Below are positions 268 to 23,042 of a DNA stretch of 23,042 nt, in pieces. Each line of letters begins with the position of its first letter. The first letter of the stretch is position 1. The DNA comes from a virus (lineage: Duplodnaviria; Heunggongvirae; Uroviricota; Caudoviricetes). The notes under the pieces are model-generated. The model searched no databases and was not told the DNA's origin. It saw nothing but the letters and a program-made list of their open reading frames with translations. Both the position numbers and the translations under genes were made by a program. The stretch lies in the IMG/VR virus record IMGVR_UViG_2563366964_000005, positions 1-23,042 of that record; one strand, 5' to 3'.

Positions 268-862
268 CTGGAAGTCACTTCTGCTAATCGTCGTTCTGTC
301 GGGCGGTGGTGTATGGCTGGGAACGCTCATCACGCAATCGCGGTTGAGTGACCAGGCGCTGGCGTTCAGCAATGAAAAATCGACGCTTATCAGCGAGTTT
401 AACACGCAAAAATCACAGTGGGATCAGGAGCGTATTACCGCCGCGAACCAGTATGCGTCAGACCTTAAAGATGCGCTGGCGGCACAGCAAACCTGGCAGC
501 GTAAGGCTGACGAAATGAGTCGTCAGCTCGCGGAACAGGATGCATCCCATCAACGGGAAGTAAAAGACCTGAAAAAGAGGCTCAAAAATGCAATTAAAAG
601 CGATGGCAATACTTATACCGGTATTGGCCCTGCCAGCCTGCAACTCTGGCGTGAAGCCCTTGGCTACCCCACAGCCCAAACAGTCAACGCTGGTCACTAT
701 CTGCCAGAAACCACCGGCAGCGCTGCTGGTGATACCGGAGATGCCATCAGCGCCAGTGGCGGACTCTCTCCCTCCGGGATAGTTGGCCATAGCGCGGAAT
801 ATGGCAAATGGTGCCTGTCTCTCCGCGATCGTCTGCAAGCTATTAACGATTACTACAGGTGA
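233..862 (+). CDS. Rz-like i-spanin (inner-membrane spanin subunit)
   Basis: N-terminal transmembrane segment (SLLLIVVLSGGGVWLGTLI) followed by charged coiled-coil-like sequence; SD-like GAGG upstream of the ATG; a lipoprotein ORF is embedded in the +1 frame, the hallmark Rz/Rz1 architecture. Confidence 0.7.
   Translation: MWAITLKLLKGNWKSLLLIVVLSGGGVWLGTLITQSRLSDQALAFSNEKSTLISEFNTQKSQWDQERITAANQYASDLKDALAAQQTWQRKADEMSRQLAEQDASHQREVKDLKKRLKNAIKSDGNTYTGIGPASLQLWREALGYPTAQTVNAGHYLPETTGSAAGDTGDAISASGGLSPSGIVGHSAEYGKWCLSLRDRLQAINDYYR
588..782 (+). CDS. Rz1-like o-spanin (outer-membrane lipoprotein) embedded in the Rz-like gene
   Basis: 64 aa, entirely inside 233..862 in a different frame; signal peptide ending in lipobox-like LPAC with Cys18; proline-rich mature part; own SD (AGAGG about 7 nt upstream of ATG). 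Confidence 0.65.
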   Translation: MQLKAMAILIPVLALPACNSGVKPLATPQPKQSTLVTICQKPPAALLVIPEMPSAPVADSLPPG

Positions 863-1122
863 AAGGAGTGGACACGGTAATGACTCTCGACACGGCCTTC
901 CAGATTGCTCTGGGACTGGCCGCACTCTTTGGCGGCATTTTTATTCGCCGCCTGAATCAGGATATTCATGACCTCGAAAAAGCCGTCGAACGCATCCGCG
1001 ACGAGTATCAGCGCCGCGAAGATGCCCGGACGAACTACACAGCAATGATGGATGCGATGAAAGAGCTGCGAGCGGCCATTGAACGCATCGATAACAAACT
1101 CGACAGGAAAGCCGACAAATGA
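859..1122 (+). CDS. small membrane-anchored coiled-coil protein, function unknown (lysis-associated by position)
   Basis: GTG at 859 overlaps the Rz-like stop; alternative ATG at 880 lies downstream of AAGGAG. Predicted N-terminal TM (FQIALGLAALFGGIFI) then charged helical region. Confidence 0.5.
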   Translation: MKGVDTVMTLDTAFQIALGLAALFGGIFIRRLNQDIHDLEKAVERIRDEYQRREDARTNYTAMMDAMKELRAAIERIDNKLDRKADK

Positions 1123-1403
1123 AAGCCAGACAAAAGCGCCGTACTCGCCGTATCCCGATTGCCAGCGATGAGCAGGAAACGCTGAACCGAATCTCTGCTC
1201 AGCTCGATCGTCTGCAGATGCCAGTTAACCCCGATATCCTGGGTGGTATCAACGACAAGCTGGAGCGTATTGACTCACGTTTATCAGCCATTAATGCCGA
1301 TGCAACCCGCCATGGCGCAAAAGCCGGGGCTATCGCCGGTGGACTTACAGGCGGTCTTATTGCTGTAGCCATCCTGTTAATCCGCGCAAAACTGGAGTTA
1401 TGA
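1119..1403 (+). CDS. small tail-anchored membrane protein, function unknown
   Basis: ATGA start/stop overlap with the upstream gene; basic N-terminus, coiled-coil-like middle, C-terminal hydrophobic segment (GAIAGGLTGGLIAVAILLI). Confidence 0.5.
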   Translation: MKARQKRRTRRIPIASDEQETLNRISAQLDRLQMPVNPDILGGINDKLERIDSRLSAINADATRHGAKAGAIAGGLTGGLIAVAILLIRAKLEL

Positions 1404-1906: not shown

Positions 1907-2114
1907 TAAATTGATTCGCGTTAACGAAAAAGTGAGTGTCATGGCCAGCACAGTGGCCTCAGTTTACATCGCATCAGGCTACTGCTTTGTCACAACCATC
2001 GACGGTGAACACCATGAACTGTCCTTTATGGGGGATTGTTACCGTACAAAAGAGAGCTTTGAAAAGGCAGTTAATGCCGCTTTAACCGGGGTTTCCTCCT
2101 GTGGCCAGTGGTAA
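1899..2114 (+). CDS. small hypothetical protein (about 71 aa from the ATG at 1899) between the terminase subunit genes
   Basis: The ORF track lists 1818..2114, but the likely start is the ATG at 1899 (MADKLIRVNEK...); overlaps the TerS-like stop and the TerL GTG start. No family recognised. Confidence 0.35.
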   Translation: MADKLIRVNEKVSVMASTVASVYIASGYCFVTTIDGEHHELSFMGDCYRTKESFEKAVNAALTGVSSCGQW

Positions 2115-3747
2115 AAAGCTTTCCAGCAAAGATTTCCTCGCCGAGCTCGCCGAGCTGGGGGCTAGCCTACGTCGGACCATCGAGGCCGAAGATGTTGGCT
2201 TTGATCCTAAACCCTCGGCGATTGAGGTTCGGCGTGCCTGTGTGGCTGACCCCTCCACGGGATTTGAGTATTTCGTGCAGAACTACTTCCCGCATTACGT
2301 GCGTCATACAGCGAAAAGCGAGCTGCATAAATACCTTTATTCCCGCCTTCCGGAACTTATCCAGGCGACAACCGGGCAGAACGACGCCATCGCAGCACCT
2401 CGCGGCGAAGCCAAGTCCACCATCGTGAGCCAGCTGTTTGTTATCTGGTGCATCGTTCTGGCGCTCAAACATTACCCGGTCATCATTATGGACTCGATAG
2501 ACCAGGCATACCCGATGCTGGAAGCTATCAAAGCAGAGCTGCAGTTCAACCCGCGTCTGCTGATGGACTTCCCGGAGGCGACGGGCGGCGGCCGCGTCTG
2601 GCAGGCAGGGACTATCCTCACGCGTAACGATATTAAGGTTCAGGTCGCCGGTAGTGGTAAAAAGCTGCGTGGCCTGCGGCATGGCCCATATCGTCCTGAC
2701 CTTGCTGTACTCGATGATATTGAGAACGACGAACAGGTACGAAACCCCGAACAGCGCGACAAACTTGATAACTGGCTCAAGAAAACCGTTCTGCCGTTGG
2801 GGGGAGCCGGTGCCAAATTTGATGTCGTTTATATCGGCACCATTCTGCATCATGATTCGGTCCTATCCCGCACGCTGAAGAATCCACTGTGGAAACGAGC
2901 CCGCTTTAAAGCGCTCATCAGCTGGCCGCACAATATGGATTTGTGGGACCGCTGGGAAGAGATCCTTCGCAACAATGATGAAGATGGCGAGATGCTGGCA
3001 CAGGCATTCTATCAGCAGCACCGGGCCGAAATGGATGCCGGTGCCGTTGTTTCGTGGGACGCCCGCCCGCTTTATACGCTGATGCTGATTCGTGCGCGTG
3101 ATGGCCACGGCACTTTCGATGCCGAATACCAGAATGACCCGGTTAACGGCGAAGATGCTCCGTTCAATGGCTGTATCAACTTCTGGGTGAACCGTCTGGC
3201 GGAATGGCGCTTTTATGGTGCCTGCGACCCGAGTCTGGGTAAGGCCGGTAACAGTCGTGACCCCTCCGCGCTGCTGGTTGGTGGCTTTAATCGCTTCACC
3301 GGTATTCTGGACGTTGTTGAAGCCCGCATCCGCAAGCGCGTACCCGACCGCATCATTTCCGATGTGATCGAGCTGCAGCGCGAGTACAACTGTCTCATCT
3401 GGGCGGTTGAGTCCGTTCAGTTCCAGGAGTTTCTGCGTACCGAACTGGTGAAACGCTCGGCCATGGCCGGGGTGCCGGTTCCGGCCCGCGCCGTCACCCC
3501 CAGTGCAGATAAATTGCTGCGTATCGAATCCCTGCAGCCGCATATGGCCAATGGCCTCATCCGTCTTCACCCCACCCAAACCACGCTGATTGACCAGCTC
3601 CGGCACTTCCCGAAAGCAGACCATGATGACGGGCCTGATGCCCTGCACATGCTATGGGCGCTGGCAGTGTCTGGCGCGGGTAACTTTGATTTTAAACCGG
3701 CACCGCGCCGCAGCGGCGATCGGTTCGGCTCATCCGGAGGATGGTAA
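2101..3747 (+). CDS. terminase large subunit (ATPase plus nuclease)
   Basis: 548 aa; Walker-A-like APRGEAKST; acidic LAVLDDIEND segment; C-terminal nuclease-like region; located just upstream of the portal gene. GTG start at 2101. Confidence 0.85.
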   Translation: MASGKKLSSKDFLAELAELGASLRRTIEAEDVGFDPKPSAIEVRRACVADPSTGFEYFVQNYFPHYVRHTAKSELHKYLYSRLPELIQATTGQNDAIAAPRGEAKSTIVSQLFVIWCIVLALKHYPVIIMDSIDQAYPMLEAIKAELQFNPRLLMDFPEATGGGRVWQAGTILTRNDIKVQVAGSGKKLRGLRHGPYRPDLAVLDDIENDEQVRNPEQRDKLDNWLKKTVLPLGGAGAKFDVVYIGTILHHDSVLSRTLKNPLWKRARFKALISWPHNMDLWDRWEEILRNNDEDGEMLAQAFYQQHRAEMDAGAVVSWDARPLYTLMLIRARDGHGTFDAEYQNDPVNGEDAPFNGCINFWVNRLAEWRFYGACDPSLGKAGNSRDPSALLVGGFNRFTGILDVVEARIRKRVPDRIISDVIELQREYNCLIWAVESVQFQEFLRTELVKRSAMAGVPVPARAVTPSADKLLRIESLQPHMANGLIRLHPTQTTLIDQLRHFPKADHDDGPDALHMLWALAVSGAGNFDFKPAPRRSGDRFGSSGGW

Positions 3748-3750
3748 TAA

Positions 3751-5331
3751 ATGGTTCAAATCCTTGACCAGTATGGTCGCCCGCTCAACAAAGACGTGCT
3801 GAAAGCCCCTCAGACCGCACGCACCGTGCAGCTGAACCGGGACTGGCCGACGCATCCCTCACGCGGAATGACGATCGCCCGTTTGCCTCGTATCCTGGAG
3901 GCGGCTGAGCGCGGCGATATTTCCGCCCAGGCAGACCTCTTCGAAGATATGGTTGAGCGGGACGGCCATATTTTCTCTGAGATGGCCAAACGCAAGAATG
4001 CGTTGCTGACGCTGGACTGGAGTATCGAACCGCCGCCGAACGCCACCGCCGAAGAGAAGCAACTGGCGGCAATGGTGGCGAGCTGGTTTGCTGACCTGCA
4101 GGAAATGGAAGATATCACTCTCAATGCGGCCGAGGCGATTGGCCACGGTTTTTCCGCTCAGGAGATTGAGAAGTGGGAGCGAGACGGGAATCTGTGGTTG
4201 CCTACCCGAATCAAGTTACGCCCGCATCGCTGGTTCTGCACCACCCCGGATAAAGGTGATGAAATCCGGCTGAATAATGGGTCGATGGACGGCGAAGAAC
4301 TGTGGCCGTTCGGCTGGCTGGTCCATACGCACAATGCTAAATCTGGCTATATCGCCCAGTCCGGCCTGTACCGCGTGCTGGTCTGGCCGTACCTCTTCAA
4401 AAACTACAGCGTACGTGACCTGGCCGAGTTCCTGGAGATATACGGTCTGCCCGCGCGTATCGGTACTTATATCGCCGGGGCCACGCAGGACGAGCAGGAC
4501 AAGCTGATGGAGGCGCTTGTCACGCTTGGCCATAATGCCTCTGGTATTATTCCCGAAGGGGCCAAAATTGAGTTTAAGGAAGCGGCGAACGGCCAGTCTG
4601 ATCCCTTTATGGCCATGATTAGCTGGGCTGAGCGCACTGAATCAAAAGTTATCCTCGGTGGCACGCTGACTTCCCAGGCGGACGGTAAGTCCTCAACCAA
4701 CGCGCTGGGCGTTGTACACAATGAGGTCCGCCATGACCTGTTGACCGCTGATGCTCGCCAGATAGAGGGCTTTTATCGGGGAGTTATTCGCATGTTACTG
4801 GCGATTAACGGGTACGATGTCAGCCCACGCCGCCAGCCCAGACTGGTCTTTGATACCCGCGAGCTGGAAAATATCCAGGTCTTCGCCGAGGGCGTATCAA
4901 AGCTGGTTGGTGCGGGGATGAAGACTATCCCGGTCAGTTGGGTGCATAAAAAGATTGGTATCCCGGAACCGAAAGACAATGAAGCCGTGTTGACGCCTCC
5001 GGCCTCGCCGCTTTCGTTACAGGCACTGACGACTCAGGCAGCGGCTTCTCCGTTCCGTCATTTTACTGCGCTGAGCAGTACCGGTGAGATTACTGACCCT
5101 GCACAGGAGGCGCTGGATAACTCCCTTCAGCCAGGTGCCGCCATTAACCTGGCGATGGAAAAGCTGATCACCCCATTAGTGGCTGCGCTGCAACAAGGCC
5201 AGACGCCTGATGAGGCGATGGACATTATCGCCGCCAGCTATCCACAGCTCGATGATTCGATGCTCCGGCAGCTGCTGCACCAGGCATTGTTCGTGAGTGA
5301 GGTCTGGGGGCGACTCAATGCCGAAAGCTGA
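3751..5331 (+). CDS. portal protein, Mu gp29-like
   Basis: 526 aa; strong SD (GGAGGA) upstream; follows TerL and precedes an F-like gene; sequence character typical of Mu-type portals. Confidence 0.85.
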   Translation: MVQILDQYGRPLNKDVLKAPQTARTVQLNRDWPTHPSRGMTIARLPRILEAAERGDISAQADLFEDMVERDGHIFSEMAKRKNALLTLDWSIEPPPNATAEEKQLAAMVASWFADLQEMEDITLNAAEAIGHGFSAQEIEKWERDGNLWLPTRIKLRPHRWFCTTPDKGDEIRLNNGSMDGEELWPFGWLVHTHNAKSGYIAQSGLYRVLVWPYLFKNYSVRDLAEFLEIYGLPARIGTYIAGATQDEQDKLMEALVTLGHNASGIIPEGAKIEFKEAANGQSDPFMAMISWAERTESKVILGGTLTSQADGKSSTNALGVVHNEVRHDLLTADARQIEGFYRGVIRMLLAINGYDVSPRRQPRLVFDTRELENIQVFAEGVSKLVGAGMKTIPVSWVHKKIGIPEPKDNEAVLTPPASPLSLQALTTQAAASPFRHFTALSSTGEITDPAQEALDNSLQPGAAINLAMEKLITPLVAALQQGQTPDEAMDIIAASYPQLDDSMLRQLLHQALFVSEVWGRLNAES

Positions 5332-20725: not shown

Positions 20726-21294
20726 GCCATTATACCTTACTGAATTTACTGTTACCCAAAGTCAGTTACAGCCCCGGTCAGCCGGTTCTGGCTGCATCTC
20801 TGCAGGCTGAAGCCCGGGTTTTCGACGATGTAGAGAACTCGGCTGAACTTGCTAAAGGGGGCGTCACGCCCTATATGGCCATGAACCTGCTCTCAGACTG
20901 GGAGCGTGTTCTTGGCCTGACAGCTCAGTCCGGGGCCAGCTATCAGCAGCGCCAGCAGCGCGTGCTGGCCAAACTGGCCGAAACGGGCGGACTCAGCATC
21001 CCATACTTCACCCGACTGGCATCCAGCCTTGGATATACCGTCACGATCGATGAACCACAGCCCTTCAGGGCGGGCACTAATCGCGCCGGTGATCGTCTTT
21101 ATGTTGAAGACATTATCTGGGTGTGGGTTGTGAATGTTAAAAACTCCGGAACGCTGGTTTACCGCTTCCGCGCGGGTAATTCTGCCGCTGGTGAACGGCT
21201 TACCTCATTTGGCGACCCGGTTATTGAAGAGGTCTTCCAGGACTTAAAACCGGCTCATACCTTTTGTTATTTCGCCTATCAGGAAAACGCATAA
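20722..21294 (+). CDS. tail/baseplate protein, Mu gp48-like (DUF2313-type)
   Basis: 190 aa; GTG start overlapping upstream stop; sits between the J-like gene and the tail fibre. Confidence 0.7.
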
Positions 21295-22034
21295 TGCAAC
21301 CGTTAATGCCGCCCATTAATACCCCTGACAATCTGTTTCACGATGGGAACCCTACAACGGGGGTTGAAGGGACTATAGTCCCCGCAGAACATCTTAATAA
21401 TGAGCAAGGCTCTATTCGCGATGTTCAAAGCGAGATGATTGCCATTCTTACTGCTGCTGCGATGGAACCAGATTCAACTGCTGGTCAGCTTCTGGCAGCG
21501 TTGAATAAACTCTATGCCCCCGGTAACGATACTCTGGGAGCGCTGGCCTCTCTGGTTGGTGCTGCAAACAAACTCCCGTACTTCACTGGTCCTAAAAACG
21601 CGGCCCTGACAGACCTGACGGCTTTCGCCAGAACGTTGCTTGGTCGTAGCGATGCTGAAGGTGTTCTCTCAGACCTTGGTTTGGGAGAAGCGGCAAAGAG
21701 GAATGTGGGGACAGGAGAAAATCAGGTACCGGATATGAACAGCTTTGGTAACTCATTGACCGCCAATGGATACCAGAAATTACCTGGGGGGATGATTATT
21801 CAATGGGGGAGTTTTTATGTCTCACCAACCGGAGGAAGTGTTGGAACAGTTGATATAACATTACCTGTAGCTTTCCCTGCTGCTTGTCGTTCGGTAAACG
21901 CTCTTATTTCAACTAATGATCCTTCTGCCCGTTCTGTGGGCTTTGATATTGGAAGTACCAACAGAACTAAAATCAGATTTACTTACACTTCTGCTACAAC
22001 AAATTCAATTTACTGGATGGCTGTGGGGTATTAA
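21294..22034 (+). CDS. tail fibre protein (short; constant N-terminal part plus a likely exchangeable C-terminal part)
   Basis: The ORF track lists 21264..22034, but the likely start is the ATG at 21294 (TAATG overlap with upstream stop, AGGAAA SD). N-terminus [20 protein letters not shown]...[11 protein letters not shown] is fibre-like; composition turns AT-rich after about 21690. Confidence 0.7.
21664..21689. other. candidate serine-invertase crossover site (gix/hix-like): TTCTCTCAGACC-TT-GGTTTGGGAGAA
   Basis: 26 bp with 12-bp imperfect inverted half-sites (10/12 symmetric) around a 2-bp core, with the ...ACC-NN-GGT... centre typical of Gin/Hin/Cin/Pin sites as I recall them; located in the tail-fibre gene where composition changes. 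Confidence 0.45.
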
Positions 22035-22036
22035 CT

Positions 22037-22468
22037 ATGGAAAAGACATATTATTTTAATCCCTCTGATTCGGGATTTTATATTTCACCAGATAGCCAAA
22101 CCATTCCTGAGAACGCTACGAAAATAAACTTTACTATTTATTCTGAGTTCGCAGGAGTTGCATGGCCTGATGGTAAAATACTTGGTTCAGATAAAAATGG
22201 TTTTCCAGCATGGCAGGATGCGCCACCACTTACCAGCGAAGAATTAATCTCAATCGCTGAATCAAATAAACAGCGATTAGTTAATCAGGCCAACGAATAC
22301 ATGAACAGTAAACAATGGCCTGGTAAAGCGGCGATTGGTCGTCTGAAAGGTGAGGAACTGGCGCAATATAATTTGTGGCTGGATTATCTGGACGCACTGG
22401 AACTGGTCGATACTTCCAGTGCGCCAGATATTGAATGGCCTACTCCTCCGGCAGTTCAGGCCAGATGA
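22037..22468 (+). CDS. tail fibre assembly protein (chaperone)
   Basis: 143 aa; immediately after the fibre gene; C-terminal DTSSAPDIEWPTPP motif typical of this family. Confidence 0.75.
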   Translation: MEKTYYFNPSDSGFYISPDSQTIPENATKINFTIYSEFAGVAWPDGKILGSDKNGFPAWQDAPPLTSEELISIAESNKQRLVNQANEYMNSKQWPGKAAIGRLKGEELAQYNLWLDYLDALELVDTSSAPDIEWPTPPAVQAR

Positions 22469-23042
22469 CATCCGGCGCGGTACTGGTATCTGTTGCCGTC
22501 ACCGCGTCAATGTAATCCAGCACAGTGTTAAGTCGGGTGGTCTCTGCCTGCATCAGCTTCCGCCCGGCCTGCAATTTCAGTTGAATCAGACTAATGGAAG
22601 CCATTGCAGTATCAATCAGTGACTGACGTTGTGCTTCTGCCGCGTCTACTGCGGCGCTATGCTGTGTCTCAGTATCCGTCACCCATTTCTCACCATCCCA
22701 TTTATCGTATGGCGTTAACGGGGCGATAGTGGTTGTTTTTTCGGGGTAATCACCCGGAGTTGTGATTTCTTTGGCGTCTCCCGTTTCGGTGTTATAGACG
22801 ATTTCACCGCGATGGTCTGGTACATATTCCCATGAGTTAAAATCTGCAGAGCGGCAGATTGCATAACCAGCTTTGTAGGTGCCTGGAGCATCTAAACAGG
22901 AATATGCCGGAATGCCGACACCAACAGCAAGATATTCAGTTGAAGCTGAAATATACTCCCGACTCATGACGTCAAAGTTATAAACAGTAATTTCTCCTGC
23001 CATAGTGGCAATTAATTCACTGTTTAATTCTGCGTTATTCAT
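22440..23042 (-). CDS. second tail fibre assembly protein, opposite orientation (partner of an alternative fibre C-terminus expected beyond the window)
   Basis: 200 aa; HRGEIVY and C-terminal DTSTAPDVIWPELP motifs typical of this family; convergent with and overlapping the + strand chaperone gene by 29 bp; its start codon is at the window edge. Confidence 0.75.
   Translation of the reverse strand: MNNAELNSELIATMAGEITVYNFDVMSREYISASTEYLAVGVGIPAYSCLDAPGTYKAGYAICRSADFNSWEYVPDHRGEIVYNTETGDAKEITTPGDYPEKTTTIAPLTPYDKWDGEKWVTDTETQHSAAVDAAEAQRQSLIDTAMASISLIQLKLQAGRKLMQAETTRLNTVLDYIDAVTATDTSTAPDVIWPELPEE

Follow-up and report, generated by a model that had tools for sequence, protein, structure and literature searches.

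Lysis of Gram-negative hosts by phages is usually taught as the work of a holin, an endolysin and a spanin. An extra small membrane protein can also be essential, as described for gp25 of phage Mu (PMC9239132) and for Lcc6 of LambdaSo (bioRxiv 10.1101/2024.01.23.576932). Here we describe two small genes, ORF80 (880–1122) and ORF94 (1119–1403), both on the + strand of a 23,042-nt stretch of viral DNA (IMG/VR record IMGVR_UViG_2563366964_000005, positions 1–23,042; hereafter the window). It covers the late operon region of a Mu-like transposable prophage of Enterobacteriaceae. Very probably ORF80 serves as an accessory protein of the lysis cassette, analogous to gp25, the releasin of Mu, and possibly a distant relative of it.

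Mu gp25 is a membrane-tethered cytoplasmic protein of the DUF2730 family that is needed for lysis and for release of the signal-anchor-release (SAR) endolysin of Mu (Chamblee et al., 2022, PMC9239132). Phage DUF2730 proteins all carry transmembrane domains (TMDs) in an N-out/C-in orientation and are encoded within five genes of an endolysin, and many are paired with soluble endolysins lacking SAR domains (PMC9239132). As gp25 aids diverse SAR endolysins, a generic action was concluded, and phage-borne DUF2730 has been reported only from transposable phages (PMC9239132). Lcc6 has 65 aa, with an N-terminal TMD (residues 5–22) and 43 residues in the cytoplasm, and lysis strictly depends on it at the holin step (bioRxiv 10.1101/2024.01.23.576932). 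It is the closest experimental precedent for the role proposed here for ORF80, the likeness lying in the description of a TMD with a short tail. Lcc6 is, however, encoded far from the lysis cassette and works with a pinholin and a SAR endolysin, whereas ORF80 is encoded inside the cassette.

The gene order GH19 endolysin, DUF2644 protein, Rz/Rz1 spanins, ORF80, ORF94 and DUF1804 small terminase (TerS) is present in full in six complete genomes and 43 of the 72 related viral contigs, and partial versions are found in most others. ORF80 is thus the fourth gene after the endolysin, and the Mu portal is also present. Many complete Enterobacteriaceae genomes encode the 80-aa product without a single residue changed (1190 indexed blocks), and the same ORF80–ORF94 pair is found in the same place in the cultured phages Klebsiella ST405-OXA48phi1.1, Klebsiella Kp4852-3 and Pseudomonas VW-6B. 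A megablast search with the first 5.4 kb of the window against the phage collection gave no match. In Mu, the interval from the spanins to the DUF1804 TerS holds gp24 (a zinc-finger protein), gp25 and gp26, and five further phages with a DUF2730 protein share the order of a gp25 gene, a gp26-like gene and TerS, with DUF2730 one gene upstream of TerS. The slots of gp25 and ORF80 are thus alike, a few genes past the endolysin and ahead of the DUF1804 TerS with one gene between. In one of the related contigs (L060), a gp24-like gene for a DksA-type zinc-finger protein precedes ORF80, as gp24 precedes gp25 in Mu. The initial annotation had already compared this interval with that of Mu; the comparison fits ORF80 in slot and topology but breaks down for ORF94, which is unrelated to gp26.

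Both open reading frames between the spanins and the terminase genes were confirmed as genes, with products predicted to be membrane proteins. The first was originally listed as 859–1122 with an 87-aa product, but the GTG at 859 does no more than overlap the stop codon of Rz. Since all 36 close and mid-distance homologues (77–85 aa) align from M-T-L-D, the start is almost certainly the ATG at 880, which lies behind an AAGGAG at 863–868 and gives a product of 80 aa. The length of both ORF80 and ORF94 is conserved among homologues down to ≈44–48% identity. Across ≈65 distinct alleles, ORF80 has a median pairwise dN/dS of 0.26 and ORF94 one of 0.34 (0.14 for TerS and 0.53 for Rz). Both are real genes under purifying selection.

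ORF80 is a bitopic inner-membrane protein by prediction, and the N-terminal TM helix with a coiled coil that was first assigned to it is upheld. It has one hydrophobic segment (residues 4–24) and is predicted to be N-out/C-in with a 56-residue cytoplasmic helix, and the AlphaFold (AF2) prediction is a single helix over residues 3–79 (pLDDT 71). The models of ORF80 and ORF94 both consist of a single or a few helices, with pLDDT values of 61–71. In the ORF80 family the N-terminal flank holds on average 0.12 K+R and 1.16 D+E, and the 15 residues after the TMD hold 3.08 K+R. This positive-inside bias predicts N-out/C-in for 136 of 136 ORF80 relatives and for 118 of 118 DUF2730 proteins. The C-terminal end of ORF80 is conserved (Y-Q-R-R-E-D … E-R-I-D-N-K-L-D-R-K-A-D-K). 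With gp25, ORF80 shares a size of ≈80–100 aa, the N-terminal TMD, the predicted orientation, a helical cytoplasmic domain and the motif Y-x-[KR]-[KR]-[ED]-[ED] … L-x-[KR]-[IL]-E-x-K-[IL]. It is shorter, however, and lacks the C-terminal half (≈45 residues) of DUF2730.

Against Pfam and NCBIfam, ORF80 and ORF94 gave just sub-threshold coiled-coil and MtrG-type matches, which we treated as architecture noise. We also considered ORF80 as an i-spanin, with which it has weak PHROG matches (E 7.8e-4). This was rejected: an i-spanin is N-in/C-out with a coiled coil in the periplasm and has a cognate o-spanin lipoprotein, the charge bias predicts the reverse orientation, and a separate Rz/Rz1 pair is present. 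The usual features of a holin (small, at least one TMD, a charged C-terminus and a gene alongside the endolysin) are shared by ORF80 and the DUF2644 protein and have no discriminating power. ORF94, although it has a TMD and a place in the cassette, almost lacks a C-terminal tail.

ORF80 matches phrog_462 (E 6.8e-12), as do 135 of the 136 relatives scanned, and by these profile matches it is a member of a large, widespread and uncharacterised phage family that has no Pfam model. A profile search of 1.84 billion representative proteins, with a query alignment built without sequences from phage records, gave at least 253 clusters at 50% identity (E ≤ 0.001). The best 150 of the 253 clusters are almost all 56–121 aa long, and most match end to end. 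The family is also common outside the Mu-like phages, unlike the reported range of phage-borne DUF2730.

Phages of these other kinds give independent evidence that the family is linked to lysis. Five loci with distant members in phages that are not Mu-like were examined. In three of them the gene lies directly upstream of an M15 peptidase endolysin; a Phage_holin_10 gene follows in one case and a DUF7940 gene in another. A pattern scan of IMG/VR for this distant branch, seeded with a 12-sequence subset of the 136-sequence alignment, gave 80 loci and more than 469 relatives in all. The direct downstream neighbours (n = 77) include 24 endolysins, 10 DUF7940 proteins and one GTA holin. The 24 endolysins span four unrelated Pfam types (GH108, phage lysozyme, M15_4 and M15_3), and among the small neighbours without a name many have two TMDs and resemble class II holins. 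By local iterative searches with six known endolysins of four catalytic types as seeds, an endolysin was found 0–1.2 kb downstream on the same strand in 59 of the 80 loci, several of the remaining loci being incomplete contigs, and upstream of the family gene in none of the 80. The gene overlaps the next one by 4 nt in 48 of 79 loci. A tblastn search with one distant member (P0112) gave no match.

In phages that are not Mu-like the ORF80-family gene is thus the first gene of the lysis cassette. Members are found in the cultured phages Kakheti25, PA73-type phages, Burkholderia KL1 and Stenotrophomonas DLP1 and DLP2. The Septimatrevirus order is gp1, holin, endolysin, Rz, Rz1 and TerS, which we verified in Kakheti25 and PAC1 and took from the publication for DLP1 and DLP2; that paper carries the same annotation of gp1 and assigns it no function (PMC4559383). 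Kakheti25 gp1 is matched over its full length by an HMM made from the Mu-like clade only (E 4.5e-7 at Z = 1e6), and it is followed by gp2, a DUF7940 protein annotated as "holin", gp3, a CHAP endolysin, and then Rz and Rz1. Gp1 and ORF80 are alike in phrog_462 membership, size, TMD and the C-terminal motif R-I-E-D-K-[IL]-D-x-K-A-D-K. They differ in place, as gp1 opens its cassette ahead of the DUF7940 holin and CHAP endolysin whereas ORF80 comes after the spanins, and in that ORF80 is coupled to ORF94, which the Septimatrevirus phages lack. Across unrelated phages, genes of the ORF80 family are tightly linked to those for holins and endolysins.

DUF7940 is the commonest non-endolysin neighbour of the ORF80-family genes. 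The domain (L174, 265–531; L092, 1442–1672; L088, 5658–5867) is found in the two-TMD protein annotated as holin in Septimatrevirus (E 1.4e-24), and it is probably a class II holin family.

In the Mu-like loci that were examined, ORF80 and DUF2730 exclude each other. No DUF2730 protein was found in the 72 ORF80 loci, and none of the six DUF2730 loci has a protein of the ORF80 or ORF94 type.

The two membrane proteins here had been suggested as possible regulators of endolysin release or lysis timing, by comparison with a Mu membrane protein reported to promote release of a signal-anchored endolysin. That specific role does not apply to the clade, because its GH19 endolysin has no signal-anchor, and SAR-endolysin extraction is thereby excluded. 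The enzyme has 216 aa and ends directly ahead of the DUF2644 gene in the six complete genomes, which places it just upstream of the window. It begins MLLTQSQFQKAAG, and its sole hydrophobic stretch has R and E within it; in the ST405 orthologue this stretch is polar. It has no SAR domain, no N-terminal TMD and no Lys-Lys cytoplasmic tag. Related Mu-like phages with ORF80 use GH108, GH19-like or amidase endolysins, and the GH108 and GH19-like enzymes are likewise without an evident SAR domain. The partners of ORF80 are thus a soluble endolysin and a candidate holin; Mu, by contrast, lacks a holin, and its endolysin is of the SAR type, with basic residues in a short cytoplasmic N-terminus. The holin of the cassette is probably the DUF2644 protein (1–267, + strand, 88 aa; Pfam DUF2644 E 4.5e-4, just under the cutoff; phrog_1322 E 1e-18), the best candidate by position and topology. 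It has one strong hydrophobic segment (23–41), a weaker one and a charged C-terminus, and is encoded between endolysin and Rz in most related loci. We found no literature on DUF2644. The window begins exactly at the ATG of this gene.

As the endolysin is soluble, ORF80 most likely acts at the holin step. The many types of holin and endolysin that co-occur with its family point to a generic action at the membrane or holin step rather than recognition of a single partner. In our best explanation, ORF80 and ORF94 close the lysis part of the Mu-like late operon. In the mechanism that we propose, ORF80 would act at the cytoplasmic membrane, where it would promote or time hole formation by the cassette holin, probably the DUF2644 protein. 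ORF94 would most likely associate with it as a modulatory partner, through TMD–TMD contacts and contacts between the cytoplasmic helices. The analysis shows that both genes are real and gives their predicted topology, family membership, synteny, linkage to lysis genes and exclusivity with DUF2730; the step of lysis affected, the interaction of the two proteins and any requirement for them in lysis are what we infer. That ORF80 is a releasin-like accessory protein of the holin step is a proposal for which we see about an even chance; any specific mechanism is less probable than that.

Several findings weigh against a releasin-like lysis role. The Pfam model of DUF2730 (PF10805) does not match ORF80 even at E ≤ 1, in a search in which gp25 scores 50.4 bits, and it matches none of the 136 ORF80 relatives at E ≤ 0.01. 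BLASTP of ORF80 against Mu gp25 found nothing. Comparison of deep profiles with hhalign (179 ORF80-family and 118 DUF2730 sequences) gave a probability of 78%, with 2.6% for reversed controls, but the alignment is confident over the TMD only and falls to 13% in global mode. Motif scores across the two families are low (14–18 bits), and one reversed control reached 15.4 bits. Lysis and packaging genes furthermore share one operon in Mu-like phages, and a scan of the interval from spanins to terminase gave no promoter-like or terminator-like signal above chance. Because this is a single operon without internal promoter or terminator, position cannot separate a lysis role from a packaging role. 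In the short contig L091 the neighbours of the ORF80-family gene are not lysis-like. Finally, ORF94 was not seen outside the Mu-like clade that carries ORF80, and it is lost together with the head genes in the contigs L060 and L064, described below.

Profile searches against the Mu lysis proteins, named at the outset as a check, therefore did not place ORF80 in DUF2730, and the profile–profile signal was weak. ORF80 belongs to phrog_462 and gp25 to phrog_736, which 3 of the 136 ORF80 relatives match weakly. With a DUF2730 profile of six sequences, hhalign gave a probability of 24–25%. The segment that follows the TMD in the DUF2730 HMM (LaktYakreeleklrkrlqeleakia) aligns without gaps to LPETYARRDDLADIKATLRRIEEKLD in some members of the ORF80 family. 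At 12 bits or more this HMM matches 11 of 179 real sequences, 0 of 884 with shuffled tails and 1 of 179 reversed. What ORF80 and DUF2730 have in common is best described as a motif, with a distant relationship possible; homology is not demonstrated.

Two further readings make more of this likeness. In the first, DUF2730 and phrog_462 would be two branches of one N-out/C-in superfamily with coiled cytoplasmic domains, a general and as yet overlooked fourth part of the lysis machinery of phages with Gram-negative hosts. It would be needed at the holin or membrane step even with a canonical holin and a soluble endolysin, and ORF94 would be its heterodimer partner in this clade. We hold this joint reading to be a minority possibility. 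In the second, ORF80 would be a true but highly diverged DUF2730 releasin orthologue with the same job as gp25. Slot, topology, mutual exclusivity, the common motif, the deep-profile hhalign value and the zinc-finger gene ahead of ORF80 in L060 all fit such an orthologue, and DUF2730 proteins paired with soluble endolysins have also been reported (PMC9239132). The Pfam model nevertheless misses ORF80 and all 136 relatives, the C-terminal ≈45 residues are missing, and the partner endolysin has neither a SAR domain nor a Lys-Lys cytoplasmic tag. We consider direct orthology unlikely, and somewhat less probable than the superfamily.

ORF94 (94 aa; phrog_1103 E 2e-16) is tail-anchored, as first described, with one C-terminal hydrophobic segment (about residues 68–88) followed by 6 residues. 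The N-terminus is invariant and Arg-rich (MKARQKRRxRR), two cytoplasmic helices are predicted, and the TMD carries an invariant glycine zipper GxxxGxxxGxxxG (G66, G70, G74 and G78). Homologues mostly have 94 aa, with variants of 75–104 aa in more distant phages. The order ORF80, ORF94, TerS is found in 68 of the 72 related IMG/VR contigs, and 54 of these 68 have a 4-nt overlap (ATGA) of the stop codon of ORF80 with the start codon of ORF94. The ORF94 stop overlaps, abuts or lies within 3 nt of the TerS start in most loci. A scan seeded with ORF94, in which the 10 most divergent complete loci were re-annotated and the remainder were the same contigs as in the ORF80 set, recovered only loci that carry ORF80. 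ORF94 is thus usually translationally coupled to ORF80, and the two form a unit.

The lysis accessory role first suggested for both genes therefore fares differently for the two. For ORF80 it is backed by the gp25-like architecture, the exclusivity with DUF2730 and the linkage to holins and endolysins; for ORF94 nothing independent of the coupling to ORF80 speaks for it. ORF94 was examined as a relative of gp26 and rejected, as BLASTP gave no alignment and gp26 is a soluble winged-helix protein of phrog_436 without a TMD. No match of ORF94 to curated Pfam or NCBIfam models reaches any cutoff, those to MtrG being sub-threshold (Pfam E 0.0023, NCBIfam E 6e-4). A tblastn search against phages gave none, probably through low-complexity filtering, since PHROG and HMM searches recover homologues. 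XhlA is a lysis-associated protein. XhlA of PBSX, MtrG and DUF883-type proteins, which are tail-anchored coiled-coil membrane proteins, resemble ORF94 in that one C-terminal TMD comes after a helical domain in the cytoplasm, but ORF94 differs from them in its Arg-rich N-terminus and its glycine zipper.

Glycine zippers are typical of homo-oligomerising, channel-forming helices. The invariant zipper in the only TMD of ORF94 thus raises a possibility in which the two proteins themselves form the hole. ORF94 would be a holin or a pinholin-like depolariser and ORF80 its antiholin or co-holin, as with XhlA/XhlB, and DUF2644 would have another role. The translational coupling of the two genes, the classical holin position of ORF80 relatives directly ahead of endolysins and weak matches to XhlA-type "hemolysin" (phrog_937; ORF80 at E 0.003, the best relative at E 4.6e-5) are in keeping with such a pair. 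Yet most cassettes outside the Mu-like phages add a separate gene for a two-TMD class II holin-like protein (DUF7940, Phage_holin_10 or unnamed), so that the ORF80-type protein is not their sole holin candidate, the soluble GH19 endolysin needs large holes, and the two-segment DUF2644 protein occupies the canonical place between endolysin and spanins. ORF94 is also absent from head-less elements that must still lyse. On balance a hole-forming pair seems improbable.

These head-less elements are L060 (876–4280) and L064 (1–10240), Mu-like elements in which ORF80 is followed directly by Gp37 (tail terminator-like) and, in L064, a tail sheath gene. Both lack ORF94, the two terminase subunits, portal, MuF, protease and capsid and look like tailocin-like derivatives of a transposable phage; L064 also keeps the early genes MuB and DUF3164. 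In both, ORF80 is kept with the lysis genes, which fits ORF80 as a lysis gene.

The loss of ORF94 exactly where the whole head module is missing can also be taken to mean that head assembly or DNA packaging, and not lysis, is the task of ORF94 and, within this clade, possibly of ORF80. ORF94 could, for example, tether TerS or DNA to the membrane and substitute for gp26. ORF94 always lies directly before TerS, mostly within 3 nt of its start, its invariant Arg-rich N-terminus could bind nucleic acid, and Mu has the winged-helix gp26 in this slot. However, ORF94 resembles neither gp26 nor any packaging protein, packaging factors do not usually carry a membrane anchor, and the gene is coupled to ORF80, whose family is lysis-linked; L060 and L064 may moreover represent one lineage with an accidental deletion end point. 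A packaging role is doubtful, about as much so as the hole-forming pair. To return to the proposal of ORF80 as an accessory protein of the holin step, ORF94 may modulate ORF80 and be dispensable, or it may be associated with packaging, and its glycine zipper also allows a hole-forming role.

Two database labels for ORF80 are misleading. The label "lipoprotein" of phrog_462 was rejected, as ORF80 has neither a cysteine nor a lipobox and is anchored in the membrane by its hydrophobic segment; the label has been carried into RefSeq for Kakheti25, KL1, DLP1/2 and others. The other is the PADLOC model PDLC02886 ("DpdH"), all 80 positions of which match ORF80 (880–1119; E 1.7e-27). That ORF80 serves defence or superinfection exclusion is nevertheless a far-fetched reading of this match, as an 80-position model cannot be the canonical DpdH, which is described as BrxC-like, no genes of a dpd island (7-deazaguanine modification/restriction) lie nearby in six genomes, and ORF80 is embedded by stop/start overlaps in a late lysis–packaging operon. 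The label looks like an artefact of a mislabelled model, and it could yield spurious Dpd calls in genomes that carry the prophage.

The remainder of the window carries further late genes of the Mu-like prophage. The Rz-type i-spanin (233–862, + strand, 209 aa) matches phrog_1403 "Rz-like spanin" over its full length (E 3.5e-29) and has lysines ahead of its N-terminal TMD. Inside it, in the +1 frame, lies the Rz1-type o-spanin (588–782, + strand, 64 aa), with a signal peptide, a lipobox-like LALPAC, a proline-rich body and a weak PHROG spanin match (E 0.009). TerS (1406–1906, + strand, alternative start 1400; Pfam DUF1804 E 1.5e-58), of the Mu gp27 type, marks where the packaging genes begin; the ATG at 1406 is the start called in the genomes L003–L008. 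A large terminase (2101–3747) and a Mu-type portal (3751–5331) follow, both on the + strand, and then genes for MuF, protease/scaffold, capsid, sheath, tape measure, baseplate and tail fibre. Upstream, the six complete genomes have MuA/MuB-type transposition genes, GemA and a Mor-like gene in addition to the endolysin.

The slot between TerS and the large terminase (1899–2108) differs among otherwise near-identical prophages and is probably a hot spot for moron insertion. It holds a small variable ORF of 69 aa in the window, a 144-aa ORF in L004, and a 72-aa ORF with a 171-aa gene on the minus strand in L005; a minus-strand gene also lies in the slot of VW-6B. At the right end, a tail-fibre gene (21264–22034) and a tail-fibre assembly gene (22037–22468) on the + strand are met by a second tail-fibre assembly gene (22440–23042) on the − strand. 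This layout (21264–23042) is that of an invertible host-range cassette of the Mu G-segment type, and the window stops inside it.

The ORF80 family is abundant, has no Pfam name, is mislabelled by both PHROGs and PADLOC and is almost always found beside holin or endolysin genes, and the result corrects annotation now spreading through phage and defence-system pipelines. If ORF80 is releasin-like, the cultured phages that carry the family (Septimatrevirus, ST405-OXA48phi1.1 and VW-6B) would allow direct genetic tests. Such factors would then be widespread rather than a peculiarity of Mu, and would serve soluble as well as signal-anchored endolysins.

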